Shown here: in pieces, positions 5,459 to 53,180 of the stretch
Layout: the number at the start of each line of letters is the position of its first letter
How positions within the stretch are numbered: position 1 is the first letter of the stretch
NCBI GenBank assembly: GCA_041497115.1
Contig: JBGQFW010000010.1
Location: forward strand, 113 to 64,112
Direction: 5' to 3'
Source: Candidatus Methylomirabilia bacterium
GTDB taxonomy: Bacteria > Methylomirabilota > Methylomirabilia > Rokubacteriales > CSP1-6
Length of the DNA: 64,000 nt
Notes under the pieces: model-generated
What the model saw: only the letters and a program-made list of their open reading frames with translations
Told to the model about the DNA's origin: nothing
The model's database searches: none
Translations under genes and position numbers: made by a program

Positions 5459-6345
5459 CAGCGCTCCTCGGCGAGCAGGCGCAGCAGGTACTGGCCGTAG
5501 GCGTTGTCGCGCATCGGCTTGGCGATGCGCTCGACGTCGGCGGCGCCGATCCACCCCATCCGGTACGCGATCTCCTCGAGGCAGGCCACCATCAGCCCCT
5601 GCCGCGTCTCGATCGTCTGGATGAAGGTGGACGCCTGCAGCAGCGCCTCGTGGGTGCCGGTGTCGAGCCACGCCACGCCGCGGCCGAGCCGCTCGACGGC
5701 GAGCCGGCCCTCGCGCAGATAGGCGGCGTTCACGTCGGTGATCTCGAGCTCGCCCCGGGCGGAGGGCGTCAGGCCGGCGGCGATCTCCACCACGCCGGCG
5801 TCGTAGAAGTAGAGTCCCGTCACCGCCCACGGCGAGCGGGGGCGCGCCGGCTTCTCCTCGATGGCGACGGCGCGCCCGGCCGCGTCGAACTCGACCACGC
5901 CGTAGCGCTCGGGATCACGCACCCAGTAGGCGAAGATCGTGCCCCCCTCGCGCCGCTCGGCCGCGCGGCGCAGCGACTCGGGCAGGCCGTGGCCGTAGAA
6001 GACATTGTCGCCGAGCGCCAGCGCGACGGGCGCCGACCCGATGAACGCGCGGCCGATGACGAACGCCTCCGCGATGCCCCGCGGCTCGGCCTGTACTGCG
6101 TAGTGGATCGCGAGGCCGAGCTGGCCGCCGTCGCCGAGCAGCCGCTGGAACGCCACCTGGTCGCGCGCCGTCGTGATCACGAGAATCTCGCGGATCCCCG
6201 CCAGCATCAGCGTGGACAGCGGATAGTAGACCATCGGCTTGTTGTAGATCGGCACGAGCTGCTTGGAGACCGCGAGCGTCAACGGATAGAGGCGCGTGCC
6301 GGAGCCCCCGGCGAGAACGATGCCCTTGCGCGCGAGGCTGCTCAT
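5458..6345 (-). CDS. rfbA: Glucose-1-phosphate thymidylyltransferase
   Basis: [17 protein letters not shown]...[31 protein letters not shown]...LGDN. The in-frame ATG is at 6345. Confidence 0.9.
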
Positions 6346-6391
6346 CGCGTTTCGGGAGTATAACATCGGGAATGGGGGTAAACTCAGCGCC

Positions 6392-7609
6392 ATGAAAACG
6401 CTGAAGGAAATGCTGGCAGAGGCCCGCCAGATCGTCCCCGAGGAGGGACCGGCGGAGCTGCAGCGCCGCCTGGCGTCGGGCGAGCCCCTTGCCGTCATCG
6501 ACGTGCGCGATCCCGACGAGTTCCGCGACGGCCACCTCGAGGCGGCCGCGAACATCAGCCGCGGGTTCCTCGAGTTCCGCATCGCCTCGGCGGTCGCCGA
6601 CCAGACGACGCCGGTCGTCCTCTACTGCCAGACCGGGCTGCGCTCGATGCTGGCCGCCCGGGCGCTCAAAGAGCTCGGCTACCAGCACGTCATCAACCTG
6701 CAGGGCGGCTACCAGAAGTGGGTGCAGTCGGGGCTGCCCACCGTGCGCGACCAGGCCATGACCCCCGACCAGATCCAGCGCTACAGCCGCCACTTCCTGC
6801 TCGCCCCGGTGGGCGACAAGGGCCAGCGCCGGCTCCTTCGCAGTCGGGTGCTCCTGATCGGGGCCGGCGGCCTCGGCTCGCCGACCGCGCTCTATCTCGC
6901 GGCGGCCGGCGTGGGCACGATCGGGCTGATGGACGGTGATGTGGTCGACATCACGAATCTGCAGCGGCAGATCCTCCACACCACCGCGGACATCGGCAAG
7001 CCCAAGGTCGAGTCGGGGACGCGGGCGCTCAAGGCGCTGAACCCCGACGTCAACGTGATCCCGCTGCCCATGCGCATCACGGTGGACAACGTGATGGACG
7101 TCATCAAGGACTACGATCTCGTCGTCGACGGCTCCGACAACTTCGAGACGCGCTACCTGATGAACGACGCCTGCTACCTCGCGGGCAAGACGAACATCCA
7201 CGGCTCGATCTTCCAGTTCGAGGGGATGGCGACGGTGTTCGCGCCCAACGAGGGGCCGTGCTATCGGTGTCTGTATCCGACGCCGCCGCCGCCGGGGCTG
7301 GTGCCCTCCTGAAGCGAGGCCGGCGTCCTGGGCGTGCTCCCAGGAGTGATCGGGCTGGTGCAGGCGACCGAGGCGGTCAAGCTCATGCTCGGCATCGGCG
7401 AGCCGCTGATCGGCCGGCTGCTGACCTACGACGCGCTCGGCATGCGCTTCCGCGAGGTCCGGCTGCGGCGCGATCCCAACTGTCCGCTGTGCGGCGGCGC
7501 CCCAACGATCAGGGACCTGTCGATCCATCGCGAGGGGTCGGCCGCGTGCGCGATCGCGCCGGGCGGCCAGGGCGAGGCGGTCGGCGCCCCGGCGCGGGCC
7601 GGAGGCTAG
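6392..7609 (+). CDS. Rhodanese-MoeB/ThiF (E1-like adenylyltransferase) fusion with an in-frame TGA at 7310-7312. It is either a candidate selenocysteine codon or a disrupted gene.
   Basis: Track ORFs 6296..7312 and 7334..7609 are in the same frame. The N-terminus has a rhodanese loop ([11 protein letters not shown]). It is followed by YSRHFLL...[12 protein letters not shown] (nucleotide binding), [39 protein letters not shown], and NCPLCGG. Confidence 0.8.
7326..7345 (+). other. Candidate bacterial SECIS-like hairpin downstream of the in-frame TGA
   Basis: A 7-bp stem, TCCTGGG (7326-7332) pairing with CCCAGGA (7339-7345), carries a 6-nt loop CGTGCT. The stem starts 13 nt after the TGA, and the apical loop starts 20 nt after it. 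Confidence 0.4.
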
Positions 7610-20842: not shown

Positions 20843-20921
20843 GCCGGAAGGCCTGAAGCGCCACTGCGACAGGCATCAAAAACTCGATGTGAATAAGGGA
20901 GTTGTGGTCCACAGTCGGGTT

Positions 20922-20937
20922 TGGTACCCGCCTTGCG
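20922..20937 (+). promoter_or_regulatory. Sigma-54 (-24/-12) promoter P1: TGGTACCCGCCTTGCG
   Basis: GG (20923-20924) and GC (20935-20936) are separated by exactly 10 nt, matching TGGYAC-N5-TTGC. It lies 47 nt upstream of the ATG at 20984 and directly downstream of a sigma-54 activator gene. Confidence 0.7.
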
Positions 20938-20983
20938 TAACACCGGTCACGGTCGTCAGAGAGGCACGGGGGGGCAATTGACG

Positions 20984-22822
20984 ATGAGGCTGGCCATCCG
21001 GAAGGTGCAGATCGAGGACGCCGCGAAGCTGCAGATGCTGGTGGCGGAGAACATCGACGCCATCGAGCCCGGGCTCGTCGTCCTCGACTCGCGCCTGATC
21101 CTCGGCCATGCCACGATCGACGTGATCGGCGCGGACGCCGCCGGCGCGCTGGTGCTGATCGCCGCCGGCATCACCGCCAACGAGGAGATGCTGCTCAAGG
21201 CGGTCGAGGCGTATTCGTGGTGCCGCGAGTATCCCGAGTCGCTCGAGCGGCTCTACCCGAGCTGCGTGATCTCCGATGAGCGGCCTCCGCGCCTCATGTT
21301 CGTCGTCGAGCGGATGCCCGACGCCTTCCAGCGCAAGATCCGGCAGCTCGGCTTCCCCGAGGTGGACTGCGTCGAGTTCCGGCTGCTCGACGTCGAAGGC
21401 GCGAGTGCCGTCTACTTCGAGCCCATTCTGAAGATCCGGCGCGCCATCGCGGCGCCCGACCGGCCGGCGCCGCGGATCGAGACGCCGGCACCCGAGGCCG
21501 GCGCCGCCGCGACGGGCGACAAGGTGATCGCGATGAACGGCGCGCTCGCCGCCCGCGCCACCAGCCTCAAGCTCCAGAAGCTCCTGAACCAGGCCGTGGC
21601 CGAGGGGCCGATCACGGGCCCGCGTGCCGCCGACCGGCCGGCGCCCCCGCGCGAGCCGGCGTCGGTGGTGAGCATGGTGAGCCGCCAGTCCATCGCCAGG
21701 GTGCCGCGGCCCGAGCGCCCGCGCCCGGCCGTCGAGCCGGTGGCGCTGCGCCAGCCGCAGCCGCTGATCGCCGCGCCGGCGGCGAGCGTCGTCGAGCCGG
21801 AGCCGGCCCCGCGGCCCGAGCCCGAGCCGATCGTCGCGCCCGAGCGGCCGACGCTGCAGCTGGAGGCGCCGGTGGCCGTCGCCGAGCCGGCGGCGGTCGC
21901 CGAGCTGGTGGCCGCGCTCGCGCCGGTGAGCGCCGACGCCGCGCCGCTGGCCGTCGTCGAGCCCGTGGTGGTCGCGGAGGCGGTGCCCGAGCCGGTCGCC
22001 ATCGCGCCGGATGCCGCGATCGTGGCGCAGCTCGAGCGCGCCCTCGCCGAGCTCGAGACCGAGCGCCGGCCCGAGACCATCGCCGTCGAGCCGGAGCCCG
22101 CGCTCGAGACGCTCACTGTCGTCGCGACCCCGGAGCCGGCGCTCGAGACCGAGCGCGTCAGCCTGCGGTGCCTGTCCGAGCTCTCGATCGACCCGAGGGA
22201 GCCGGCCGCGCTGTCGACGCCGAGCGCGCCGGTCGTCGTCGCGCCCGAGCCCGCCGTCGCCGTCGAGGCCGAGCCTCAGGAGAAGCGCATCTCCTTCAAG
22301 GATCTGGCCGCCGCGCTGCTCGGCGGACCCGCCGCCGCCGCGCCCGTCGCGCCGGTGGCGGCGGCGCCCATCGTCGCCACGGCGCCCGTCGAGATCGAGC
22401 CGGTCGTGGTCTCGATCGTGATCGAGCCGGTGACGACCGTGGCCGAGCCCGAGCCGGCGCTCGCGCTGGTCGAGCGCGAGCCCGCGACGCCCGCCGAGCC
22501 CGAGACGTCGCGGGCCGCCCTCGAGGAGATCGTCGCGCTCGCCGCCGTCGAGACGCCCGAGATCGAGACGGCCATCGACATCGACGAGCCAGCCGGCGAG
22601 GATACGCTGACCGTGGAGGCCCTGGTCCAGAGCGTGCCCGTCGCCACTCCGGCGCAGGCGCCGACGCCCCCCGCGGCCGTGATCGAGCAGCAGGTCACCG
22701 ACACCGCCAAGCAGGTGCTGACGGCGATGCCCCAGGAATTCGAGGGGCTCAAGTTCCCCAACGACGGAGTGCTGACGCGCCAGTGGATGGAGTTTCTCAG
22801 CCAGATGTCGAACACGAAGTAG
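20984..22822 (+). CDS. Hypothetical protein: an N-terminal globular domain of about 160 aa (possibly a degenerate NucS/PD-(D/E)xK-like fold), a Pro/Ala/Glu/Val-rich acidic low-complexity region of about 400 aa, and a short C-terminal motif
   Basis: The ATG at 20984 is chosen because the track start at 20921 lies inside the promoter. N-terminus: MRLAIRKVQIEDAAKLQMLVAENIDAIEPGLVVLDSRLILGHATIDVIGADAAGALVLIAAG. Tail: FEGLKFPNDGVLTRQWMEFLSQMSNTK. Confidence 0.65.
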   Translation: MRLAIRKVQIEDAAKLQMLVAENIDAIEPGLVVLDSRLILGHATIDVIGADAAGALVLIAAGITANEEMLLKAVEAYSWCREYPESLERLYPSCVISDERPPRLMFVVERMPDAFQRKIRQLGFPEVDCVEFRLLDVEGASAVYFEPILKIRRAIAAPDRPAPRIETPAPEAGAAATGDKVIAMNGALAARATSLKLQKLLNQAVAEGPITGPRAADRPAPPREPASVVSMVSRQSIARVPRPERPRPAVEPVALRQPQPLIAAPAASVVEPEPAPRPEPEPIVAPERPTLQLEAPVAVAEPAAVAELVAALAPVSADAAPLAVVEPVVVAEAVPEPVAIAPDAAIVAQLERALAELETERRPETIAVEPEPALETLTVVATPEPALETERVSLRCLSELSIDPREPAALSTPSAPVVVAPEPAVAVEAEPQEKRISFKDLAAALLGGPAAAAPVAPVAAAPIVATAPVEIEPVVVSIVIEPVTTVAEPEPALALVEREPATPAEPETSRAALEEIVALAAVETPEIETAIDIDEPAGEDTLTVEALVQSVPVATPAQAPTPPAAVIEQQVTDTAKQVLTAMPQEFEGLKFPNDGVLTRQWMEFLSQMSNTK

Positions 22823-24752: not shown

Positions 24753-24818
24753 CGGGGGCTCGCGATGCACCCGCAGCCAAGCGTACACGCTCGCGGTTCG
24801 GCCACGGCGGAGGTCGTA

Positions 24819-25565
24819 ATGGGTTCCCTCCACAGCGGGTTGCAGTGGGGTGTCGACCGGATGCTGTCGGTCGGCTACGGCCTGCTCTACGACTATATCT
24901 TCGAGAAGTTCACCCCCTACCAGCACCTGCGCACGGAGGTGCTGGAGCTGATCGCCGCCTCGGCCAAGGAGGCGCCGGACCGCCGCGACGTGCAGGTCCT
25001 CGACGTCGACTGCGGGCCGGGCAACCTGACCTTCGTGATCGCGGAAGCCGGCTTCTCCGTCGTGGGGCTGGAGCCCTACGGCGCCCTGGTCGAGCTGGCC
25101 CGGGAAAAGCGGCGCGCCAAGCGCCTGGCCAATCTCGCGTTCACCCAGGGCGACCTCGCCACCGGAAAGACGTTGCGCGAGGGGTCGTTCGACCAGGTCG
25201 TGAACGTGCACTCGCTCTACGCGCACGCGGATCCGAAGGCGCTACTGGTCCAGGTCCACCGGGTGCTCAAGCCCGGCGGCCACGCCGTCTTCGTGAACCA
25301 CACGCGACGGGCGGACGTGCGCGCGACGTTCCGCGAGGTGCGGGCCCGCGAGGGGCTGGCCTCCGCGCTGCGCTGCCTGTTCCTCTGGCTGCTGCCGCAC
25401 TCGCTGTTCGAGGCCGCCCGCCGGCGGACCGGACCTCACTACTGGGGCGAGGCCGAATTCGCCTCGAACCTGCGCGCGGCGGGGTTCACGGTGCTGCAGG
25501 TCCGGCGCACGTTCCTCAACGGCGCCAGCCTGCTCGTCTGGGTCCGGAAGAACACGGCGGAGTAG
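24819..25565 (+). CDS. Class I SAM-dependent methyltransferase (paralog 1)
   Basis: VLDVDCGPGNL motif I and VLKPGGHAVF. The ATG at 24819 has a GGAGG SD at 5-nt spacing. The track start at 24765 is also possible. Confidence 0.75.
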   Translation: MGSLHSGLQWGVDRMLSVGYGLLYDYIFEKFTPYQHLRTEVLELIAASAKEAPDRRDVQVLDVDCGPGNLTFVIAEAGFSVVGLEPYGALVELAREKRRAKRLANLAFTQGDLATGKTLREGSFDQVVNVHSLYAHADPKALLVQVHRVLKPGGHAVFVNHTRRADVRATFREVRAREGLASALRCLFLWLLPHSLFEAARRRTGPHYWGEAEFASNLRAAGFTVLQVRRTFLNGASLLVWVRKNTAE

Positions 25566-25568
25566 CGG

Positions 25569-26327
25569 ATGGAGCTCGCGGGATCGATGGGTAATCGCGT
25601 CGCGTCGCCGCCGACCCTCGAGCGGCTGATCGCGGTCGGCTACGGGCTGACCTACGACGCCATCGTCCGCGGCTTCGGCCCGTACGAGGCGCTGCTCGAC
25701 GAGATCGTGGCCCTGGTGGGGCGCGCCGCGGTGCCGGGCCCGCCCACCGGCACGCGCGTGCTCGACGTCTCGTGCGGGATCGGCACCGTCGCCGAGCGGC
25801 TGGCCCGTCGCGGCTGGACGGTGGTGGCGCTCGACCCGGTCGCGCATCTGGTCGGTGTGGCCCGCCGACACCATCGCGACAGCGGCCTGTCGCTCAGCTT
25901 CCAGCACCTCGACGTCGCCCGCGAGCCTCCGCCCGAGGCCGGCACCTACGACGTCCTCGTCAGCATGCACACGCTCTACTGGCATCCCGATCCTGCCGCG
26001 TTGCTGGCGGCCTGCCGGCGGGCGCTGCGACCGGGCGGCTACGCGGTGTTCCTGACGTACGAGCGGCCCGCCCACGTGCTCCGCACGTTCGCGCAGGTGC
26101 GCGCGCAGCGCGGCTGGCTCCAGGCCCTGCGCGCCCTGCGCTGGCTCCTGCCGACGGCGCTGTTCGACGCGTTCCGCAGCGTCCGGCCCCGCTATCTGAG
26201 CCGGACGGAGTTCCTGGCCGCACTGCAGACGGCGGGCTTCGAGGTGCTGGAGACGCGCGAAACCTTCCTGGCGGGCATCAGCCTGCTGGCCTGGGCCCGG
26301 GTCAGCGACCCCAAGGGGGCGTCGTGA
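25569..26327 (+). CDS. Class I SAM-dependent methyltransferase (paralog 2)
   Basis: VLDVSCGIGTV motif I and ALRPGGYAVF. It is collinear with paralog 1 over its full length (VGYGL.YD.I...F.PY..L....). Confidence 0.75.
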   Translation: MELAGSMGNRVASPPTLERLIAVGYGLTYDAIVRGFGPYEALLDEIVALVGRAAVPGPPTGTRVLDVSCGIGTVAERLARRGWTVVALDPVAHLVGVARRHHRDSGLSLSFQHLDVAREPPPEAGTYDVLVSMHTLYWHPDPAALLAACRRALRPGGYAVFLTYERPAHVLRTFAQVRAQRGWLQALRALRWLLPTALFDAFRSVRPRYLSRTEFLAALQTAGFEVLETRETFLAGISLLAWARVSDPKGAS

Positions 26328-44251: not shown

Positions 44252-45541
44252 TCAGCCGGCGGCGGGAGCGCCGTGACGCCGCCGGCGCCGGCCGCCGCGC
44301 CGCGAGCGACGGCGGCGCTGGACCGCGGGCGCGCCCTCGTCGGGCGGCGCGGCCACGTCGGCGGGCTCGTCGCCCGGCTCGTCGCCGGGCTCGGGGGCGG
44401 GCATCTCGGCCGGCGCGCCGTACTGGGAGGCCTCGACCACCGCCCGGCGCGCCTCGTAGCTCTCCGCCGCGGTGAGCGGCCGCGCGACCGGCCGCGAGGC
44501 CGCCGCCTCCACCGGCTCCGGCGCCGCCCCCGGCGCGCCGGCCCCGTCCACCAGCGTGATGTGGCCGGCGCGGCTCACCGACAGCTCGCGCAGCCGCCTC
44601 AGCCGCGTGATCAGCCGCGGCGAGCCCGGGGGCCGGCTGAAGCCGTGCGACTTCAGCGCGTTGGCCAGGGCGTCGAGGGTGATGGTGCGGCCGGCCGAGC
44701 GCTCGATCAGGTCGCGGGCAACCCCCAGCAGCTCGTCGTGCGGCGCCGTGTGCGGCTCCTCGGCGGCGGCGTGCGCGACCGGGGGCGGCGCGTGCAGCGG
44801 CGCGCCGTCGCGCCGGGGGCCGCGGCGACCGCGCCGGTGCCGCCCGCCCCGCGACTCGCCGTAGGACTCGCTCGGCGCGGCGACGACGGGCTCCTCGACG
44901 GGCGGCGCGGCCAGCGCGGGCGCCGCGCTCGGCACGCCGGTGAGGCGGCGATACGAGAGGCGGCGGAACGCGATGCCCAGGCTCGTGGCGACGTCGCCGA
45001 CCGCATCAAATGCCCGGTCGTCGGAGATGACTTCCAGCACGTCGCCGGGGCGCGCGGTGCCGAGCCAGACACCGGCGGCCACCGCGATCCGCAAATCGCT
45101 CCAGTCCTTCACCCCCACCGACGGCGCGCTGTGCAGGAGCTGGGCGCCGTGGCCGGCCAGCAGGCGCGCCGTGTCGTGGCCGATCACGCGCCAGTTGCCC
45201 ACGGCGATGAAGTCGGTGCGGCGGCCGAGGCGGTCCACCGCCAGGTGGTCGATGACCCGCGCGATGTGCTGCACGCGGCTCGTGTTCTCCACGTCGAAGA
45301 AGATCGCGCGCCGGGTGGTGGGCAGCGGCCGCTCGGGCTCGGGGGGGCGGGCCGCCGCGCGCGCGGAGAACGTCAGCTCGGGCTCGGCCAGCGGCAGGTT
45401 GTGACCCGGCGGATCCGGCGGCCCCTCGACCGGCGGCAGGGGCTCGAGCGCGACCGGCTCGGGGGGTGGCGCCGCCGGGCGCGGTCCGCGGCGGCGGCCG
45501 ACGCGGCGTCGTTTGGTGGACTTTCGATGTTCGGTCGTCAC
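44252..45541 (-). CDS. NYN (LabA-like, PIN-like nuclease fold) domain protein with a C-terminal OST-HTH/LOTUS-like region and Arg-rich termini
   Basis: AIFFDVENTS...DLRIAV...VISDDRAFDAV (NYN pattern). ITLDALANALKSHGFSRPPGSPRLITRLRRL (LOTUS-like). The GTG at 45541 is chosen to avoid overlap with the divergent small ORF. Confidence 0.55.
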   Translation of the reverse strand: MTTEHRKSTKRRRVGRRRGPRPAAPPPEPVALEPLPPVEGPPDPPGHNLPLAEPELTFSARAAARPPEPERPLPTTRRAIFFDVENTSRVQHIARVIDHLAVDRLGRRTDFIAVGNWRVIGHDTARLLAGHGAQLLHSAPSVGVKDWSDLRIAVAAGVWLGTARPGDVLEVISDDRAFDAVGDVATSLGIAFRRLSYRRLTGVPSAAPALAAPPVEEPVVAAPSESYGESRGGRHRRGRRGPRRDGAPLHAPPPVAHAAAEEPHTAPHDELLGVARDLIERSAGRTITLDALANALKSHGFSRPPGSPRLITRLRRLRELSVSRAGHITLVDGAGAPGAAPEPVEAAASRPVARPLTAAESYEARRAVVEASQYGAPAEMPAPEPGDEPGDEPADVAAPPDEGAPAVQRRRRSRRGGRRRRRHGAPAAG

Positions 45542-45610
45542 GTCGCGCCCGTCTCCCGGGCGCGGATCGAGCGTATCACGGATGGCGGAGCGCGGCAGGT
45601 GGAGTGTACG

Positions 45611-45829
45611 ATGCGCCGCATGAGCGAGACGGCCCAACCCGGCGAGGCGGAGATCCTCCACGCGCTGATCCGCCGGCGCTACGGCGACCGGCTCACCGCC
45701 GAGGAGCTCGACAGCGTGCGCCGCGGCGTGGAGGCGCTCGTCGAGCAGGCCGCCGCGCTGCGGGCGGTGCGCCTGGCCAATGCGGACGAGCCCGTGCAGC
45801 GCTTCGTCCCGTTCCGCGCCGACGCGTGA
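45611..45829 (+). CDS. Small protein (72 aa), GatC/AtzG-like (DUF4089-like) putative amidase partner
   Basis: Tail ...LRAVRLANADEPVQRFVPFRADA resembles GatC/AtzG C-termini. Its stop overlaps the amidase GTG (GTGA). Confidence 0.4.
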   Translation: MRRMSETAQPGEAEILHALIRRRYGDRLTAEELDSVRRGVEALVEQAAALRAVRLANADEPVQRFVPFRADA

Positions 45830-47214
45830 ACCCGGTCTTCTCCTCCGTCCGCGCGCTGTCCGACGCCCTGCGCCAGCGGCTCGTGTCGCCCGTCGAGCTG
45901 GCCGAGACCTTCCTGGACCGCCTCGAGCGGCTCGGCCCCCGCTACAACGCGGTCGTCACCGTCACCCGCGCGCGCGCGCTGACCCAGGCGCGCCGCGCCG
46001 AGGGCGAGATCGCCGCCGGCCGCTGGCGCGGGCCGCTGCACGGCATCCCCTACGGCGCCAAAGACCTGTTATCGACCGCCGGCATCCCGACCACGTGGGG
46101 CGCCGCCCCGCTGCGCGAGCAGACGTTCGACTTCGACGCGACGGTCGTGCGCCGCCTCGAGGAGGCGGGCGCGGTGCTCGTGGCCAAGCTCGCGATGGTC
46201 GAGCTGGCCGGCGGGATGGGCTACCGCCAGCCGAACGCCGCCTTCACCGGACCCGGCATCTCGCCGTGGGCCGACGATGCGTGGAGCGGCGGCTCGTCCA
46301 GCGGCTCGGGGTCGGCGGTGGCGGCGGGGCTGGTGCCGTTCGCGATCGGCTCGGAGACGTGGGGCTCGATCCTCTCGCCGGCCGCCTACTGCGGCATCAC
46401 CGGGCTGCGGCCGACCTACGGGCGCGTGAGCCGTCACGGCGCGATGGCCCTCGCCTGGACGCTCGACAAGCTCGGCCCGCTCGCGCTGACCGCGGACGAC
46501 TGTGGCCTCGTGCTCGGCGCCATCGCCGGCCCCGACCGCCACGACCCGACCGCGGCCGACCGCCCGTTCGCCTACGCCGCCACCGACGTCACGGGCCGCC
46601 GCTTCCGCTTCGGCGTCCTGCGCGACGTGGCGGCGACGGCGGAGCCCGCCGTGCAGGAGGCCTTCGCGCGCTCGCTCGAGACGCTGAAGAAGATCGGCAC
46701 GGTCGAGGAGGTGACGGTCGCCGACCTGCCCTACGAGGCCATCACGCGCACGATCTTGATGGCCGAGGCGGCCAGCGCCTTCGAGGACCTCATCGAGCGC
46801 GGCGGCATCGCCGCGCTGACGGCGCCCGAGGACCGCGTCACGCCCTACGCGCGCGACGCCATCCTCGCCAAGGACTACCTCAAGGCGCTGCGGCTGCGCG
46901 CGCACGTCATGCGCGAGGCCGACCGCGTGCTCGCGCGCTTCGACGCGCTCGTGGCCCCCGGCCGGCCGGCCACCGCGCCGCCCCTCGACCAGGAGTTCCG
47001 CGACCTGCACCGGCCGCCGAAGGACCCCATGGGCGCCATCGGCAACGTGGCCGGGCTGCCCGCCATCGCGGTGCCCAACGGATTCAGCGCCCGCGGGCTG
47101 CCGACGAGCCTGCAGTTCATGGGGCGCGCCTGGGAGGACGACACCGTGCTCGCCTGCGGGCGCGCCTGGCAGGGCATCACCGACTGGCACCTGCGCCACC
47201 CGGCCGCCGGGTAG
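45826..47214 (+). CDS. Amidase-signature (AS) family amidase
   Basis: GIPYGAKDL, GGSSSGSGSAVAAGLVPFAIGSETWGSILSPAAYCGITGLRPTYGRVS. Ser-cisSer-Lys family signature. Confidence 0.85.
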   Translation: MNPVFSSVRALSDALRQRLVSPVELAETFLDRLERLGPRYNAVVTVTRARALTQARRAEGEIAAGRWRGPLHGIPYGAKDLLSTAGIPTTWGAAPLREQTFDFDATVVRRLEEAGAVLVAKLAMVELAGGMGYRQPNAAFTGPGISPWADDAWSGGSSSGSGSAVAAGLVPFAIGSETWGSILSPAAYCGITGLRPTYGRVSRHGAMALAWTLDKLGPLALTADDCGLVLGAIAGPDRHDPTAADRPFAYAATDVTGRRFRFGVLRDVAATAEPAVQEAFARSLETLKKIGTVEEVTVADLPYEAITRTILMAEAASAFEDLIERGGIAALTAPEDRVTPYARDAILAKDYLKALRLRAHVMREADRVLARFDALVAPGRPATAPPLDQEFRDLHRPPKDPMGAIGNVAGLPAIAVPNGFSARGLPTSLQFMGRAWEDDTVLACGRAWQGITDWHLRHPAAG

Positions 47215-47225
47215 CGCCCCGCGCC

Positions 47226-48197
47226 GTGCGCCCACGCCTCGGCGTGGCCTTCGACGGTCGCGCCCCGCTGCCGGTCCTCCGCGCGCAGGCGCAGGCGGCC
47301 GAGGCCGCCGGCGCCGACGGCGTGTGGATCTCGAGCCACCTCTTCCTGCGCGATCCGTTCACGCTCGCCGCCGCCGTGCTCGCCGCGACGAGCCGCGTGC
47401 GCGCGACGCTGATGGCGGTCAGCCCGCACGTGATGCACCCGGTGCACATGGCGATGGCCGCCGCCACGCTCGACGAGCTCGCGCCGGGGCGCGTGGCGCT
47501 GTGCGTCGGGACCGGCGCGCCCGACGACCTCGCCGCCGCCGGCGTGACACCCCGGCGGCCGCTGCGCGCGCTGCGGGAGACGGTGGAGGTCGTGCGCGCC
47601 CTGCTCGGCGGCGAGCCCGTGACCTACGCGGGCGAGCTCTTCCGCGTGGACCACCGGCGGCTCGGCCCCGGCCGCCGCCCGGTGCCGATCGTCCTGGCCG
47701 CGGCCCGCCCGCGCGCGCTCGCGCTGGCCGGCGCCGTCGCCGACGGCGTCGTCCTCTCGAACGCCTCGTCCGTCGAGTTCGTGCGCGCCTGCCTCGCCCA
47801 CGTCGCCCGCGGCGCCGGCGGCCGGCCGCTCGCCCGCGCCGGGCTGGTGTACGCCGCGGTCGCCGAGGGCGAGGCCGAGGCGCTGGGCCGCTTCCGCCGC
47901 CAGCTCGCCGTCACGCTGCGCGCGCCTCACCACGCGGAGAATCTCGCGCTGGCCGGCGGCGCGCTCGACCAGGACGCGCTGCGGCGGGCGGTCGCGCGCG
48001 AGGACTGGGCGGCGGCCGAGGCGCTCGTCGGCGACGACGTGGTGCGGCGCCACACCGCCGCCGGCCCGCCCGCCCGGGTGCGCGAGCGGCTCGACGCCTA
48101 CCGCGCCGCCGGCCTCGACGAGATCGTGCTGGGCGGGCTCGCCACGCCCGAGGAGACCGCGCGCGCGGTGGCCGTCGCGCGCGGCGGGACGGGCTGA
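47226..48197 (+). CDS. LLM-class (luciferase-like) flavin/F420-dependent oxidoreductase
   Basis: GADGVWISSHLF...LDELAPGRVALCVGTG... TIM-barrel LLM pattern. The in-frame GTG is at 47226. Confidence 0.7.
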   Translation: MRPRLGVAFDGRAPLPVLRAQAQAAEAAGADGVWISSHLFLRDPFTLAAAVLAATSRVRATLMAVSPHVMHPVHMAMAAATLDELAPGRVALCVGTGAPDDLAAAGVTPRRPLRALRETVEVVRALLGGEPVTYAGELFRVDHRRLGPGRRPVPIVLAAARPRALALAGAVADGVVLSNASSVEFVRACLAHVARGAGGRPLARAGLVYAAVAEGEAEALGRFRRQLAVTLRAPHHAENLALAGGALDQDALRRAVAREDWAAAEALVGDDVVRRHTAAGPPARVRERLDAYRAAGLDEIVLGGLATPEETARAVAVARGGTG

Positions 48198-48202
48198 CGC
48201 GC

Positions 48203-49201
48203 ATGCGCTTCAGCGTGCAGCTGCCCACGTGCACCGAGGGGCTCGTGAACCCGGTCCCGTTCGCGGCGCCCGCCGACTTCGTGCGGCTGGCCCAGGCGGC
48301 CGAGCGGCTCGGCTACGACGCCGTGTGGGGCAACGACCACGTCACCGCGGCGCCCTACGTGCGCCGGACGTGGGCCGAGCCGCCGAACTTCTACGAGGTC
48401 CTCGTGACGCTGGCCACCGTGGGCGCGCACACGACGCGGGTGCGGCTGGGCACCGCGCTCATCGTGCTGCCGCTGCGCGATCCGGTCCTGCTCGCCAAGC
48501 AGGTCGCCACCCTCGACCGGCTCACGAACGGCCGCGTGATCCTCGGCGTCGGCCTCGGCGCCTACCGCCGGGAGTTCGAGGCGCAGTGGCCGCGGCGCGC
48601 CGCCGCCCGGCGCGGCGACATCTTCGACGAGTCGCTGGCGGCCCTCCGCCTCCTCTTCACCGAGCGCGAGGCGAGCTATGCCGGCGCCCACGTCGCGTTC
48701 GAGAAGCTCGAGTGCTATCCCAAGCCGGTGCAGCAGCCGCTGCCGGTGTACGTCGGCGGCCACAACGAGGCGGCGGTGGCGCGGGCGGCGCGGCTGGGCC
48801 AGGGCTGGCTGCCCGGCTGGCGCCCCTTCGACGAGGTCCGGGCGCGCACCGCGCTGCTGCGCCGCCTCACCGCCGAGGCCGGCCGCGATCCGGCGAGCAT
48901 CGAGGCCGCCGTGCAGTTCACGCTCGTGCTCGGCCGCACCGACGCCGAGGCCTCTGCCCGCTACCGTGCGACCGGCATGGGCCGCCACCGCGTGTCGCTC
49001 GCTCACACCGGGCGCGATCCGGCCCTGGCCGAGGCCAACAACCTCATCGGCAGCCCCGCCCGCGTCCTCGAGCAGCTCGCCCGCCTGGCCGACGCCGGCG
49101 TGGACCACGTGTGCGCCATCCAGTTCCCGCACGAGAGCGTGAGCGAGATGCTCGAGCAGATGGAGTGGTTCGCCCGGGACGTCGTCGCCGTCTTCCGGTA
49201 G
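48203..49201 (+). CDS. LLM-class flavin/F420-dependent oxidoreductase
   Basis: GYDAVWGNDHV...LGTALIVLPLRDPVLLAKQVATLDRLTNGRVILGVGLG. The in-frame ATG is at 48203. Confidence 0.75.
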   Translation: MRFSVQLPTCTEGLVNPVPFAAPADFVRLAQAAERLGYDAVWGNDHVTAAPYVRRTWAEPPNFYEVLVTLATVGAHTTRVRLGTALIVLPLRDPVLLAKQVATLDRLTNGRVILGVGLGAYRREFEAQWPRRAAARRGDIFDESLAALRLLFTEREASYAGAHVAFEKLECYPKPVQQPLPVYVGGHNEAAVARAARLGQGWLPGWRPFDEVRARTALLRRLTAEAGRDPASIEAAVQFTLVLGRTDAEASARYRATGMGRHRVSLAHTGRDPALAEANNLIGSPARVLEQLARLADAGVDHVCAIQFPHESVSEMLEQMEWFARDVVAVFR

Positions 49202-49204
49202 GGT

Positions 49205-50431
49205 ATGCTATCCGGCATGACACCCTCGAGCGCCGACGCCTTCGAATCGCTGCTCTCCAGCCGGGCCCGCATCGGCTGGGGCGTGCCCGTGGCCACGCCG
49301 CGCCCGTCCATGTCCGCCCTCTACGAGTTCGGCGGCGGCTATCCCGATCCGGCCTCGTTCCCCTACGAGGGGATGATCGAGGCCACCGCCGACATGATGA
49401 AGGACGAGGGCGCCGCCGCGATGACCTACGGCGAGCCCCAGGGCTACCGCGGGCTGCGCGAGCTCGTCTGCTACAAGTACGCGCTGTTCGAGAAGATGAA
49501 GGTCGAGCCGGACAACATCATCGTCGCCAACGGCTCCGGCCAGGCGCTGGCGCTGGCCTTCGGGGCCTTCATCGATCCGGGCGACGCGGTGATCGCCGAG
49601 GCGCCGACGTTCTCGGGCTCGCTCAACACGATCCGCCGGCACGGCCCGCAGATCCTCGACGTGCCGGTGGACGCCGAGGGCATCGTCACCGACGCCGTGC
49701 GCGAGCGGCTGGAGGGGCTGCGCCGCCAGGGGCGCCGCTGCAAGCTCATCTACACGATCGTGAACTTCCAGAACCCGGCCGGGCCCAGCCAGTCGCTGCG
49801 GCGCCGGCAAGAGCTGGTGGCGCTGGCCAACGAGTACGAGACCCTCATCCTCGAGGACGACGCCTACGGCGAGCTGCGCTTCGAGGGGCAGACGCTGCCG
49901 CCGCTGTACACGCTCGACACCCAGGGCCGCGTGATCCGGGCGGGCACGCTCTCGAAGATCCTCGGCGCCGGCGTGCGGCTGGGGTGGCTGTGCGCGCCCA
50001 CGTCCATGATCGGGGCGTTCCAGGGGTTCCTCTTCGGCGGCGGCGTGAACCCGTTCATGTCGCGGGTGGCCACGTACTACCTGCGCTCGGAGATGCCGGC
50101 ACACGTCGCCCGTCTCATCGACGTCTACCGCGCCAAGCGCGACGCGATGCTGCGCGGGCTGGACGAGGTGCTCAAGGACACCGACGCGGAGATCAGCCGG
50201 CCCGAGGGCGGCTTCTTCCTCTGGATCCGGCTGCCCGGGGGCACCGACACGAAGCGGCTGTCCGCCCTCGCGGTGGACAAGCGCGTGCAGTACACGCCGG
50301 GCGCCGCGTTCTACGCCAACGGCGGCGGCGAGGAGCACATCCGCCTGGCGTTCAGCTACGAGCCGCCCGAGAAGTGCTACGAGGGCGGCCGCCTCATCGC
50401 CCAGGCCATCGTGGCCGCCCGCGCGCGCTGA
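49205..50431 (+). CDS. PLP-dependent aminotransferase, class I/II (2-aminoadipate/aromatic aminotransferase-like)
   Basis: YGEPQGYRGLRE...NGSGQAL...NFQNPAG...LEDDAYGELRF...GTLSKILGAGVRLGW (the PLP Lys is in SKIL). Confidence 0.8.
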   Translation: MLSGMTPSSADAFESLLSSRARIGWGVPVATPRPSMSALYEFGGGYPDPASFPYEGMIEATADMMKDEGAAAMTYGEPQGYRGLRELVCYKYALFEKMKVEPDNIIVANGSGQALALAFGAFIDPGDAVIAEAPTFSGSLNTIRRHGPQILDVPVDAEGIVTDAVRERLEGLRRQGRRCKLIYTIVNFQNPAGPSQSLRRRQELVALANEYETLILEDDAYGELRFEGQTLPPLYTLDTQGRVIRAGTLSKILGAGVRLGWLCAPTSMIGAFQGFLFGGGVNPFMSRVATYYLRSEMPAHVARLIDVYRAKRDAMLRGLDEVLKDTDAEISRPEGGFFLWIRLPGGTDTKRLSALAVDKRVQYTPGAAFYANGGGEEHIRLAFSYEPPEKCYEGGRLIAQAIVAARAR

Positions 50432-50444
50432 CCGGCGAGGGGCC

Positions 50445-53180
50445 ATGGGCGGCCTGCGACCGCTCGCCCGCTCGGTCCCCGTGGTGGTCGCCCTGCTCGC
50501 CGGCGCGGCGTGCGCGACCTCGCCGATCGTGTCACCGGCCCGCCTCGCAGGGGCCGAGGACGAGCCGCCCCGCATCCAGGCGCCCGCGCCGGCCTCGCCC
50601 CGCCGGCTCCTGACCCACGCGGCCAAGGCGCCGGCGCTGCCCGCCGGCATGCGCGGCTGGCTCCCCGCCCACGAGGGTGATCCGATCCTGGTCGTGCTCA
50701 CGCCGACCGCCGGCAAGACGCCGACCTCCGAGCGGGTCCGCGACGAGGTGATCGCGCCGATCCTGCGCGCGATCGGCTTCACGCGCGGCGTGGGCGCGCT
50801 GCGGCGGCCGCCTCCCGACGGCGTCGCGCTGCCCCGGCCCGAGTTCGCCCCGCTCGCGCGCGCGGTCGCGCTCGAGTACGCGGCGGACCCGCGGCTCCTC
50901 CGCCCGGAGACGCAGGAGATGCTCGACGTCTTCCTGGGCGCCCGCGAGCCCGACGCCGACGTCGATCGCGCGCTGCTGCTGGGTGAGGGCATGACGTTCG
51001 CCCAGTACCGGGCGGGGATCGAGCGGCGCGAGATCGTCTTCCCGTTCCAGCAGGTCCACTGCGAGCCGGCCCGCTGCGTGCTGATCGAGCACGCGCTGCT
51101 GATGGCGACCGCCTGGGAGGGCGAGAGCGTCCGCTCCGTGCAGGGCGCGCTGCTCGGCGACTACCTGATCGCCAACGCCGCGTCGCTCGATCCCGGCGCG
51201 GTGGTGACGGCGGCCCACCGCTCGCTCCTCGCCGTCCGAGGCATCGAGCGCGCGAGCGTGCCGCGCCCGGCGAAGGGGCCGACCCTGGTGCTGCTGCCGT
51301 TCGGGACGGACGCCGGGGGCCGCCCCCTGCTCCGCTACGCCTACCGGATGCAGCAGGAGGCGACCTGGCGGGGCCGGCCCGCCCGCTTCCTGCTCTGGGC
51401 GGACGCCGGCGACGGCAAGCTGCTCGCCCTCGAGCCGCTGACCAAGGCGGCCGGGGCGCAGGGGCGGACGTTCAACCGCGACGCCGGCCAGCCGGGCGCG
51501 CCGCTCGTGCAGTTCCAGGTCGACGCGCCGACGGCGAGCGGCGAGTTCATGCTGGTCAACGCGAACGCGTCCGTGCGATTGAACTACCGCGGGGACGGCT
51601 ACAACGCGTCGGAGGTGACGATCCTCGCCGGCGGCAACGGCAGCACTACCTCGTTCGCGAATTTCGACCAGCCCCCGATCAACGCACTCGCCGGCACGCT
51701 GTGCGCCGAGCCCGTCCCCGGAGGCCACGCGCCGAACCCGGCGTTCCAGCAGGTGAGCCTGTTCGCCACGCTCATGCGCCACCGGGACACGATCCGGGGC
51801 GCCGGAACGTTCGAGCCGTATCCCGACGGCCTGTGGGCGCCGACCGTCGAGTATTCGCCGTTCGGCTGCAACGCCGACCAGACCATGACCTTCGGCGCCT
51901 GCTCCGGCTACTGGAGTGCCGCGTGCCCGGACGCCCCCGACGAGCTGCTGAACTTCGCCCACGACAACACGATGGTCGCCCACGAGATCGGCCACAGCGC
52001 CAACTCGCGGCTCGTCGAGGGACGACCCTGGGACTGGTGCGCGCCGGGCGGACCGCCGGACTGCGATCTCCCGCAGGGCTGGGGGCTGTTCCACGACCTG
52101 GCCGACTTCTGGGGCGCGCACCTGGAATCCACGAACTGCATCGGCGGCTGGGTCGCCAAGAACGTCGGCGGCACGAACGCGAGTCTCTACTGCTCACCCA
52201 AACACAGCGAGCGGGACTGGTTCCCACGCAAGCTCGAGGTCACGGTGGGGGCGACGACCGGCGATCATTTTCCCGAGCACCGAGATCCGATGGTCGGCGG
52301 CGTGAACGCCTACGCCGACGGGCAGATTGCCGGCGCCGCCCTGTGGGAGGTGCGGGTCGGCATGCGAAGCAAGTGCCGCCCCTCCGGGGTGCCGCAGTTC
52401 GGCGTGCGCTTCCAGCGCGCGCTGATGCACTCGGGGTTCTTCGACGCGTTCGTGCCCGACTCGACCGATCTCGGGATGTACCGGCGCCTCGTCGAGCTGC
52501 TGCTCAAGATGGTCGAGCAGTGGGCGACGGCGGGGCTGCCCGGCGGGCCGCCGGCGTTCGCGCACAACGGCGCCCACACGACGAACAAGGTGACGGCGGG
52601 ATTCGCGCGCGCGGGGATCTTCCTGGTGCCGTGGCAGTGCCTGGACGCCGACCCGTCCAACGACACGATCCTGACCTGCCCCGCCGCCAATCCGGGCGCC
52701 GACGCCGTGGTGGACGTCGACGACGGCGACCCCGCCGACGACGATCCCATCGTCGATCGTGACTTCCTGCGCGCGGGCGGCCCCGCCCCCGTCTTCCACG
52801 TCTGGACGGGGCCGCGGTACCGGCTGGACGGCCCGAACGGGCAGAGCACGATGCTGAGCCCCGCGCCATGCAACGACGAGTTCCACGTGGAGGCCACCAC
52901 CGACCCGACGTTCGCGACGGTGACCGCGACGAGCCCGTGGACGCGGGTCAATCGCCTGCCGACCGGCGGCGCGCCGACCTGCTACGGCACCTGGAGTCCC
53001 AACGCCACCGAGTGGGCGGCGCTGCAGGCGGGCGGCGTCCCCTCGCGGATCTACTACCGCGCGCGGACGCGCGACGCGAGCGGCGGCACCGTGCGACTGT
53101 CCACCGAGCCGGGCAACGGCCTCTGGTCGGTGCCGCCGCCCTACGCGGTCATCACCAGCGACGGGCGCTCGGACTACTAG
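50445..53180 (+). CDS. Large exported (possibly lipoprotein) zinc metallopeptidase-like protein with an HExxH motif (thermolysin/fungalysin-like clan MA)
   Basis: Signal VVVALLAGAAC. NTMVAHEIGHSANSRLVEG...C...QGWGLFHDLADFWG resembles the M36/M4 active-site block. 911 aa. Confidence 0.6.
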   Translation: MGGLRPLARSVPVVVALLAGAACATSPIVSPARLAGAEDEPPRIQAPAPASPRRLLTHAAKAPALPAGMRGWLPAHEGDPILVVLTPTAGKTPTSERVRDEVIAPILRAIGFTRGVGALRRPPPDGVALPRPEFAPLARAVALEYAADPRLLRPETQEMLDVFLGAREPDADVDRALLLGEGMTFAQYRAGIERREIVFPFQQVHCEPARCVLIEHALLMATAWEGESVRSVQGALLGDYLIANAASLDPGAVVTAAHRSLLAVRGIERASVPRPAKGPTLVLLPFGTDAGGRPLLRYAYRMQQEATWRGRPARFLLWADAGDGKLLALEPLTKAAGAQGRTFNRDAGQPGAPLVQFQVDAPTASGEFMLVNANASVRLNYRGDGYNASEVTILAGGNGSTTSFANFDQPPINALAGTLCAEPVPGGHAPNPAFQQVSLFATLMRHRDTIRGAGTFEPYPDGLWAPTVEYSPFGCNADQTMTFGACSGYWSAACPDAPDELLNFAHDNTMVAHEIGHSANSRLVEGRPWDWCAPGGPPDCDLPQGWGLFHDLADFWGAHLESTNCIGGWVAKNVGGTNASLYCSPKHSERDWFPRKLEVTVGATTGDHFPEHRDPMVGGVNAYADGQIAGAALWEVRVGMRSKCRPSGVPQFGVRFQRALMHSGFFDAFVPDSTDLGMYRRLVELLLKMVEQWATAGLPGGPPAFAHNGAHTTNKVTAGFARAGIFLVPWQCLDADPSNDTILTCPAANPGADAVVDVDDGDPADDDPIVDRDFLRAGGPAPVFHVWTGPRYRLDGPNGQSTMLSPAPCNDEFHVEATTDPTFATVTATSPWTRVNRLPTGGAPTCYGTWSPNATEWAALQAGGVPSRIYYRARTRDASGGTVRLSTEPGNGLWSVPPPYAVITSDGRSDY

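Follow-up and report, generated by a model that had tools for sequence, protein, structure and literature searches.

A conserved in-frame UGA as a predicted selenocysteine codon in MoeB-like rhodanese-E1 fusion genes of Rokubacteria

Whether an in-frame TGA ends a protein or encodes a residue within it is the question raised by a gene at 6392..7609 on the forward strand of the window, the 64,000-nucleotide stretch of contig JBGQFW010000010.1 (Candidatus Methylomirabilia bacterium, assembly GCA_041497115.1) analyzed here. In translation of the window, two open reading frames (ORFs), 6296..7312 and 7334..7609, share one frame and are joined through the TGA at 7310-7312. Read in this way the coding sequence is complete, with 405 codons and a TAG stop, and would encode a rhodanese domain followed by a ThiF/MoeB-type E1-like adenylyltransferase, with selenocysteine (Sec) predicted at residue 307. 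An earlier reading of the letters alone (the sequence-only reading) had named the TGA as a candidate for Sec recoding. That proposal is now backed by the position of the codon in a catalytic-cysteine column, by its retention as TGA in 147 of 159 related loci, by coding constraint that continues in frame across it, by frozen codons in a downstream hairpin, and by a selenoprotein family described in 2005. We conclude from comparative sequence analysis that the UGA at 7310-7312 (codon 307) is very probably decoded as Sec. The specific chemistry of Sec307 is less certain than the recoding itself.

The TGA codon and its conservation

When the protein is aligned with solved structures, the TGA shares a column with Cys184 of ThiF and Cys187 of MoeB from E. 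coli, both numbers being counted by position in the alignments, and, in Chaetomium Uba4, with the crossover-loop cysteine (CtUba4 Cys202). Its distance from the zinc CxxC (17 and 14 residues) agrees with that between C208/C211 and C225 in ScUba4, which makes ScUba4 Cys225 the equivalent residue. Because the alignment and the matching spacing coincide, the TGA column corresponds to the Uba4 catalytic residue Cys202/Cys225, which makes the thioester with Urm1 (PMC7527816). In ThiF, Cys184 makes an acyl-disulfide with ThiS (PMC12596934). The sequence-only reading had put the TGA at the conserved active-site cysteine, and this is borne out by the alignments to ThiF, MoeB, Uba4 and Cys-containing homologs.

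The related loci come from metagenome-assembled genomes (MAGs) of Rokubacteria/Methylomirabilota and from soil metagenomes, and the core region is complete in 159 of them. The codon in the TGA column is TGA in 147 loci (Sec-type) and TGC or TGT in 12 (Cys-type), and it is never TAA or TAG. Both alternatives that the sequence-only reading had suggested looking for at this codon in relatives, TGA and TGC, are thus present. The terminal stop of Sec-type genes varies freely (TGA 79, TAG 61, TAA 5). Among GTDB species representatives, with one genome per species, TGA is found in 77 of 79 scorable loci and TGC in the other 2; one more locus, L053, was missed by the first pattern and is also Sec-type, which brings the figure to 78 of 80. 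When JGI metagenomes were searched with a Cys-type query as seed, 68 of 80 loci had TGA, 11 TGC, and 1 TGT. The Sec-type set comprises 132 distinct core proteins with amino-acid divergence of up to 24%, and the Cys-type sequences fall into two separate clades.

Protein databases mirror this division. Among the matches listed in a protein search, dozens of clusters are exactly 306 residues long, 86-89% identical to the query, and end in ...GLVPS; the full-length homologs found in the same search have ∼404 residues, are 75-80% identical, and read ...GLVPSC(S/A/G)EAGVLG. The exact 306-residue product of the window gene is found on 6 contigs of separate assemblies, including the MAGs GCA_041497935.1 and GCA_041478235.1 and the JGI metagenomes 3300053057 and 3300052991. 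At these MAG and JGI loci (L161-L164), public gene calls give a 306-residue "MoeB" and a separate ORF of 83-87 residues. If one sequence alone were considered, a single-base error from TGC to TGA in sequencing or assembly would be easy to accept, and a decaying pseudogene is the related alternative. The TGA is present in 147 independent loci, which were generated in many studies and bear several styles of contig name (contig_, k141_, NODE_), and the identical truncated product recurs in the 6 separate contigs. Moreover, coding constraint is strong on either side of the TGA and all catalytic motifs are intact. The probability of an error or a pseudogene is practically negligible.

Nearly all loci are labelled Candidatus Rokubacteria, Rokuibacteriota or Methylomirabilota. 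Six Sec-type loci (L023, L028, L053, L068, L070, and L075), 78-84% identical to the window, lie in MAGs that bear the labels Binatia, Acidoferrum, Limnocylindria or Dormiibacterota; mislabelled or misbinned Rokubacteria contigs are a more likely explanation of these labels than spread across phyla. The MAG SMAG_U8953 (DATEMW01) contains both a Sec-type locus (L047, TGA) and a Cys-type locus (L079, TGC), which may be paralogs with divided roles or may reflect a mixed bin. An ENA protein of 400 residues (P0001) has an internal duplication of ∼95 residues in the E1 domain and still ends in ...GLVPS; it probably arose when two strains were merged in assembly.

Read-through and the downstream hairpin

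Coding constraint does not stop at the TGA. Pairwise diversity at first, second, and third codon positions is 0.12, 0.075, and 0.36 upstream of it and 0.096, 0.029, and 0.32 downstream. Codons +1 to +7 (7313..7333), which in read-through translation give SEAGVLG, precede any in-frame codon at which translation could restart. Here diversity is 0, 0, and 0.17; the seven residues are invariant in 74 distinct orthologs, and in the GCN and GGN codons each of the four bases occurs at the third position. Past the TGA, the GTG at 7334 (codon +8) is the earliest in-frame candidate for a start. It is invariant and lies inside the loop of the hairpin described below, and a GAGG stands at 7316-7319, 14 nucleotides upstream of it. 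The sequence-only reading had seen no Shine-Dalgarno sequence for the 7334 ORF; this needs correction in view of the GAGG, although that motif is distant and its GTG is enclosed in the hairpin loop.

These features bear on whether the TGA is a real stop in a split gene, in which a 306-residue rhodanese/half-E1 protein would end at 7312, a 91-residue C-terminal piece would be re-initiated at GTG 7334, and the two pieces would assemble. The public gene calls (306 residues plus an ORF of 83-87) match such an arrangement, as do the invariant GTG and the upstream GAGG. Under it codons +1 to +7 would be untranslated, yet SEAGVLG is kept exactly and variation there is confined to third positions. The GAGG is 14 nucleotides from a GTG that lies within the hairpin loop. 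A genuine stop would be expected to change freely between TGA, TAG, and TAA, like the terminal stop, and here it is TGA in 147 of 147 Sec-type loci. Finally, the break would fall exactly on the catalytic cysteine codon and remove the loop that is best conserved in the family. A split gene is therefore highly improbable, and the public calls of a protein that stops at residue 306, with a separate ORF of 83-87 residues after it, are annotation artifacts. The genetic code is not reassigned, since UGA is the stop codon most often used to end ordinary genes in the window. Judged by the codon-level constraint around it, the UGA at 7310-7312 is read through.

The start of the gene at ATG 6392 (MKTLKEML) is supported by the starts of its orthologs. 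Together with the shared frame, the Pfam and NCBIfam matches given below, and the coding constraint past the TGA, this supports a single rhodanese-E1 fusion gene of the MoeB/ThiF/MoeZ/Uba4 kind at 6392-7609. The view that the two ORFs form one E1-like gene had already been taken in the sequence-only reading, whose coordinates for the TGA, spacer, stem arms, loop, and ORFs were all right on recheck.

The TGA is followed by a spacer of 13 nucleotides (7313-7325), a 5' arm TCCTGGG (7326-7332), a loop CGTGCT (7333-7338), and a 3' arm CCCAGGA (7339-7345). The stem sets in 13-14 nucleotides past the UGA, and the apical loop of 6 nucleotides starts 20 nucleotides past it, with G as its second nucleotide. 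Published bacterial selenocysteine insertion sequence (SECIS) elements lie directly 3' of the UGA and have G as the first or second nucleotide in the apical loop (PMC1088965, PMC13582414). The window hairpin agrees with this stem-loop description in its position, its small loop, and its loop G. From folds and from the freezing of synonymous sites, the predicted SECIS core is placed at 7325..7345 on the forward strand, with a stem of 6-7 base pairs, (U)CCUGGG/CCCAGG(A), and the apical loop CGUGCU. RNAalifold gave the 6-base-pair stem CCUGGG/CCCAGG with the same loop. It also proposed a lower SECIS stem, CNGG/UCGG, which is not claimed here; one of its sides is invariant and hence gives no covariation signal.

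The clearest signal of the hairpin is in its codons. Aligned by codon, 74 distinct Sec-type genes have 213 conserved fourfold-degenerate columns, in which codon entropy averages 1.1 bits. Synonymous variation is zero in just 6 of these, namely codons +5 to +9 and +12 (GTC CTG GGC GTG CTC ... GTG), and all 6 are in the hairpin or adjoin it. At codon +10 the rare proline codon CCA is used in 93% of the genes, compared with 6% gene-wide, and the sole variant, CCG, replaces a U-A pair by U.G. The conserved block of 20 nucleotides at 7325-7344, GTCCTGGGCGTGCTCCCAGG, has two variants in the 147 loci, with A in 137 and G in 10. Cys-type homologs, of which 12-14 loci were compared, vary at codons +5, +6, +7, and +10, and their codon +9 is always CTG and never CTC. 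Because the frozen synonymous sites are confined to the hairpin, this comparison of codon usage shows selection on the hairpin at the level of RNA.

A homologous hairpin is found in a known family. The "Molybdopterin biosynthesis MoeB protein" was described computationally as a new selenoprotein family from the Sargasso Sea with 11 sequences (Zhang, Fomenko & Gladyshev 2005; PMC1088965), was found again in the Global Ocean Sampling (GOS) survey of 2008 with 19 sequences (pfam05237; PMC2398784), and is listed in reviews (PMC9312934, PMC13188914). The sequence-only reading had suggested that surveys already include MoeB-like selenoproteins, and this is right (PMC1088965, PMC2398784, PMC13188914). 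The marine sequences compared here are those of Zhang et al. 2005. Their hairpins read GUCCUGGG-CGUGCU-CCCGGGA or GUUUUGGG-CGUGCU-CCCAGGA, and that of the window reads GUCCUGGG-CGUGCU-CCCAGGA. The GUUUUGGG variant has two C-to-U changes that retain pairing as G.U, and some marine copies have one internal mismatch. The marine genes have a GC content of 0.41-0.47, and of 0.32-0.44 at third codon positions (GC3), and still keep the GC-rich hairpin codons. Since these low-GC genes retain it, the hairpin is not a mere by-product of high-GC codon usage.

In Cys-type genes (L077, L079, L081-L090, L093, and L110), the same codons form a shifted hairpin, CUGGGC/GCCCGG, with a loop of 5 nucleotides, GUGCU. 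It may represent a forerunner of the SECIS or what is left of one.

Decoding as Sec and the proposed role of the enzyme

Several results weigh against decoding of the UGA as Sec. The fold of 61 nucleotides was not exceptional when compared with shuffled sequences (z = -1.79, with 12 of 200 shuffles as good), and neither was the core fold of 28 nucleotides (z = -1.45, 19 of 200). The register-shifted hairpins of Cys-type genes fold at -6.7 to -10.8 kcal/mol, and the Sec-type mean is -11.4. The core stem is near-invariant, with no compensatory double change in the Rokubacteria set. Rfam gave no SECIS or tRNA-Sec match, either in the whole window at gathering thresholds or in 7200-7500 at E <= 10. 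No selA, selB, selD or tRNA-Sec was found in the 64-kb window by ARAGORN, Rfam, and a Pfam survey of ∼40 ORFs, nor across ∼0.83 Mb of related loci (80 loci, with ARAGORN used for tRNA-Sec). No gene for a sulfur carrier of the MoaD/ThiS type was found near the gene. Taken in one sequence the hairpin is statistically ordinary, and the argument therefore rests on the comparative data. The SECIS-like hairpin of the sequence-only reading has gained from its geometry and from the comparative signal, and as a hairpin in one sequence it was weak evidence.

Fold energy was dropped as primary evidence for telling Sec-type from Cys-type genes, as it discriminates weakly (mean -11.4 vs -9.0 kcal/mol), and the sole Rfam match, Atu_Ti3, was rejected as a chance match. 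Scans based on GC3 in the window and the related loci revealed no second gene with an in-frame TGA; the other candidates were adjacent genes that share a frame by chance.

Sec use in the lineage is reported in the literature at the level of the phylum. According to a review that cites Deng et al. 2026, a Methylomirabilota MAG was predicted to have 63 selenoproteins and the phylum is rich in selenoproteins (cited in PMC13188914), and Sec-type [NiFeSe] hydrogenases have been reported in Methylomirabilota (PMC13582414). The data presented here speak to read-through and not to the identity of the inserted residue. UGA might thus be recoded to Cys by a SelB- and SECIS-dependent tRNA of the tRNA(ReC) type, or to Trp or Cys by near-cognate read-through stimulated by the hairpin, and tRNA(ReC) systems that recode UGA with a SECIS have been reported in MAG-rich phyla (PMC13582414). 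A costly signal for Cys is hard to explain, given that a single mutation would give TGC, the codon found in sister clades. In addition, the column and the hairpin are the ones that define the published Sec-MoeB family, and Sec use is reported to be wide in the phylum. Insertion of a residue other than Sec is accordingly improbable.

The domains of the protein suggest how Sec307 may be used. The N-terminal rhodanese domain spans 6449..6727 (residues 20-112; Pfam PF00581, E = 1.7e-20) and has an active-site loop, YCQTGLRS, which is conserved in orthologs and whose Cys79 is encoded by the TGC at 6626-6628. The ThiF/MoeB adenylation (E1-like) domain spans 6782..7486 (residues 131-365; Pfam PF00899, E = 8.9e-86) and contains GAGGLG. 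The zinc CxxC motifs, CYRC at 7259-7270 and CPLC at 7481-7492, are invariant or near-invariant in 76 of 76 orthologs; all of these features lie on the forward strand. The motifs YCQ[TS]GLRS, GAGGLG, CYRC, and CP[LV]C are kept throughout the same 76 orthologs. Scored with Cys substituted for Sec, the protein has a full-length match to NF006444/PRK08762 (residues 4-373 against profile positions 3-373 of 387; 524.3 bits, curated cutoff 449). Matches to ThiF and MoeB among solved structures in the PDB are at E ∼1e-57.

If the UGA is decoded as Sec, the hairpin (CCUGGG/CCCAGG, loop CGUGCU) would act as a bacterial SECIS and bring SelB, loaded with Sec-tRNA(Sec), to a ribosome that has paused at the UGA. 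If the enzyme works as Uba4/MOCS3/MoeZ and ThiF do, its E1 domain would adenylate a ubiquitin-like sulfur carrier at the C-terminal glycine. In the place of the usual Cys, Sec307 may then attack the acyl-adenylate to form an acyl-selenoester; alternatively, it may resolve an acyl-disulfide formed by a persulfide on the rhodanese Cys79. The product released would be the thiocarboxylate of the carrier. As a nucleophile and as a leaving group a selenolate is superior to a thiolate, and these properties would speed the relay step at Sec307. A point against such chemistry is that E. coli ThiF and MoeB are reported to form no thioester at the cysteine of this column (PMC13139853).

The search for a carrier led to the C-terminal tail. 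Small ORFs near the gene that end in Gly-Gly were considered as MoaD/ThiS-like carriers and rejected, as the only matches were to the C-terminal part of moeB itself. In its ∼38 residues the tail past the zinc motif (7493..7606, forward strand) combines a conserved motif, PTI[KR]DLSIH-x(3-7)-C, with a variable linker of Ala, Gly, and Pro and ends in [KR]AGG, which is ARAGG in the window. It has no beta-grasp domain and carries a further conserved Cys. A Gly-Gly end is found in 88 of 145 Sec-type orthologs and in 0 of 13 Cys-type loci, yet the closest Cys-type protein, P0002, has one. A terminal Gly-Gly is a hallmark of the MoaD/ThiS/Urm1 carriers. The enzyme might thus be a self-contained relay that needs no separate carrier and uses its own Gly-Gly tail to carry the acyl-adenylate and the thio- or selenocarboxylate, or it might traffic selenium through a Se-S or Se-Se intermediate; we regard this idea as improbable.

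The conserved gene neighbors, rfbA, rfbB, and genes for an HD-domain protein and an HtrA-like protease, are uninformative on the pathway, which may be that of the molybdenum cofactor (Moco), of thiamin, of Cys or of tRNA thiolation. No Moco gene was found in the neighborhood of the window gene, and the MoeB function of NF006444-type proteins is assigned by name only. An SBP_bac_11 gene lies 3' of the window gene and is shared by only 1 of 80 loci. One subclade (L060, L067, L070-L072, L074, L076, and L078) has a tRNA-Arg(TCT) gene 0.1-3 kb downstream on the opposite strand. This synteny is unlike that of the window, where a 2-hydroxyacid dehydrogenase gene and the SBP_bac_11 gene come next. Elsewhere in the window, two complete class-I S-adenosylmethionine (SAM) methyltransferase ORFs at 24753-25562 and 25566-26324 (forward strand) share a frame with one TAG between them and look like tandem paralogs. 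Four ORFs of 444-1043 residues, at 20897-22819 and 50049-53177 on the forward strand and at 44255-45955 and 46878-48209 on the reverse strand, have high GC3 and no Pfam match at E <= 1e-5.

Relation to the known MoeB selenoproteins and to other E1-like enzymes

Recognition of the Sec codon corrects a systematic misannotation, in which well over a hundred public MoeB-like records of Rokubacteria/Methylomirabilota stop at residue 306 and are accompanied by a spurious small ORF. In a lineage widespread in soil and groundwater, the Sec form appears to be the rule (77 of 79 scorable species-representative loci). This makes the lineage a good system for the role of selenium at the catalytic cysteine of E1-like enzymes, whether in forming an acyl-selenoester in place of a thioester or in faster resolution of a persulfide. 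It also links the marine family of 2005 to a permuted architecture that shares one SECIS, which informs how Sec codons and their SECIS travel with a domain.

By sequence, the window gene belongs to the known MoeB selenoprotein family, and what is new is the phylum, the permuted architecture, and the majority status of the Sec form. Like the marine Sec-MoeB proteins, the predicted enzyme has Sec in the identical column, in the context ...CYRCLY..PPP..LVPS-U-x(E/V)AGVLGVLPG, and a homologous hairpin formed by the same VLGVLPG codons with the same loop CGUGCU. The E1 domains are 57% identical over 166 residues, and both proteins have a catalytic rhodanese domain. In the marine proteins the rhodanese domain is C-terminal, as in MoeZ, and aligns to the N-terminal rhodanese of the window protein, so that the domain order is permuted. 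The position of the rhodanese domain is a difference, not a defining trait of the Sec-MoeB family. The marine sequences are of unknown taxa, whereas the window lineage belongs to Rokubacteria/Methylomirabilota, has 72% GC, and has the Sec form in the majority. Only the window lineage, and not marine Sec-MoeB, has the long tail with its [KR]AGG end.

The domain order and motifs of the window protein are those of NF006444/PRK08762 ('molybdopterin-synthase adenylyltransferase MoeB'). The sequence-only reading had considered an N-terminal rhodanese on a Sec-containing E1 domain unusual, but rhodanese joined to MoeB in this order is the architecture of a curated family. The profile describes Cys proteins, unlike the clade of the window, whose public records end at residue 306. 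The fold, the zinc sites, and the column of the crossover-loop cysteine are shared with E. coli ThiF and MoeB, which lack a rhodanese domain; we know of no Sec forms of these model enzymes. The eukaryotic Urm1 activator Uba4/MOCS3 and the bacterial MoeZ/MoeBR combine the adenylation domain, zinc CxxC pairs, the catalytic position in the crossover loop, and a rhodanese persulfide cysteine in the same polypeptide (PMC7527816, PMC6007339). They differ from the window protein in having a C-terminal rhodanese, Cys in place of Sec, and a known carrier, which is Urm1, CysO or MoaD.

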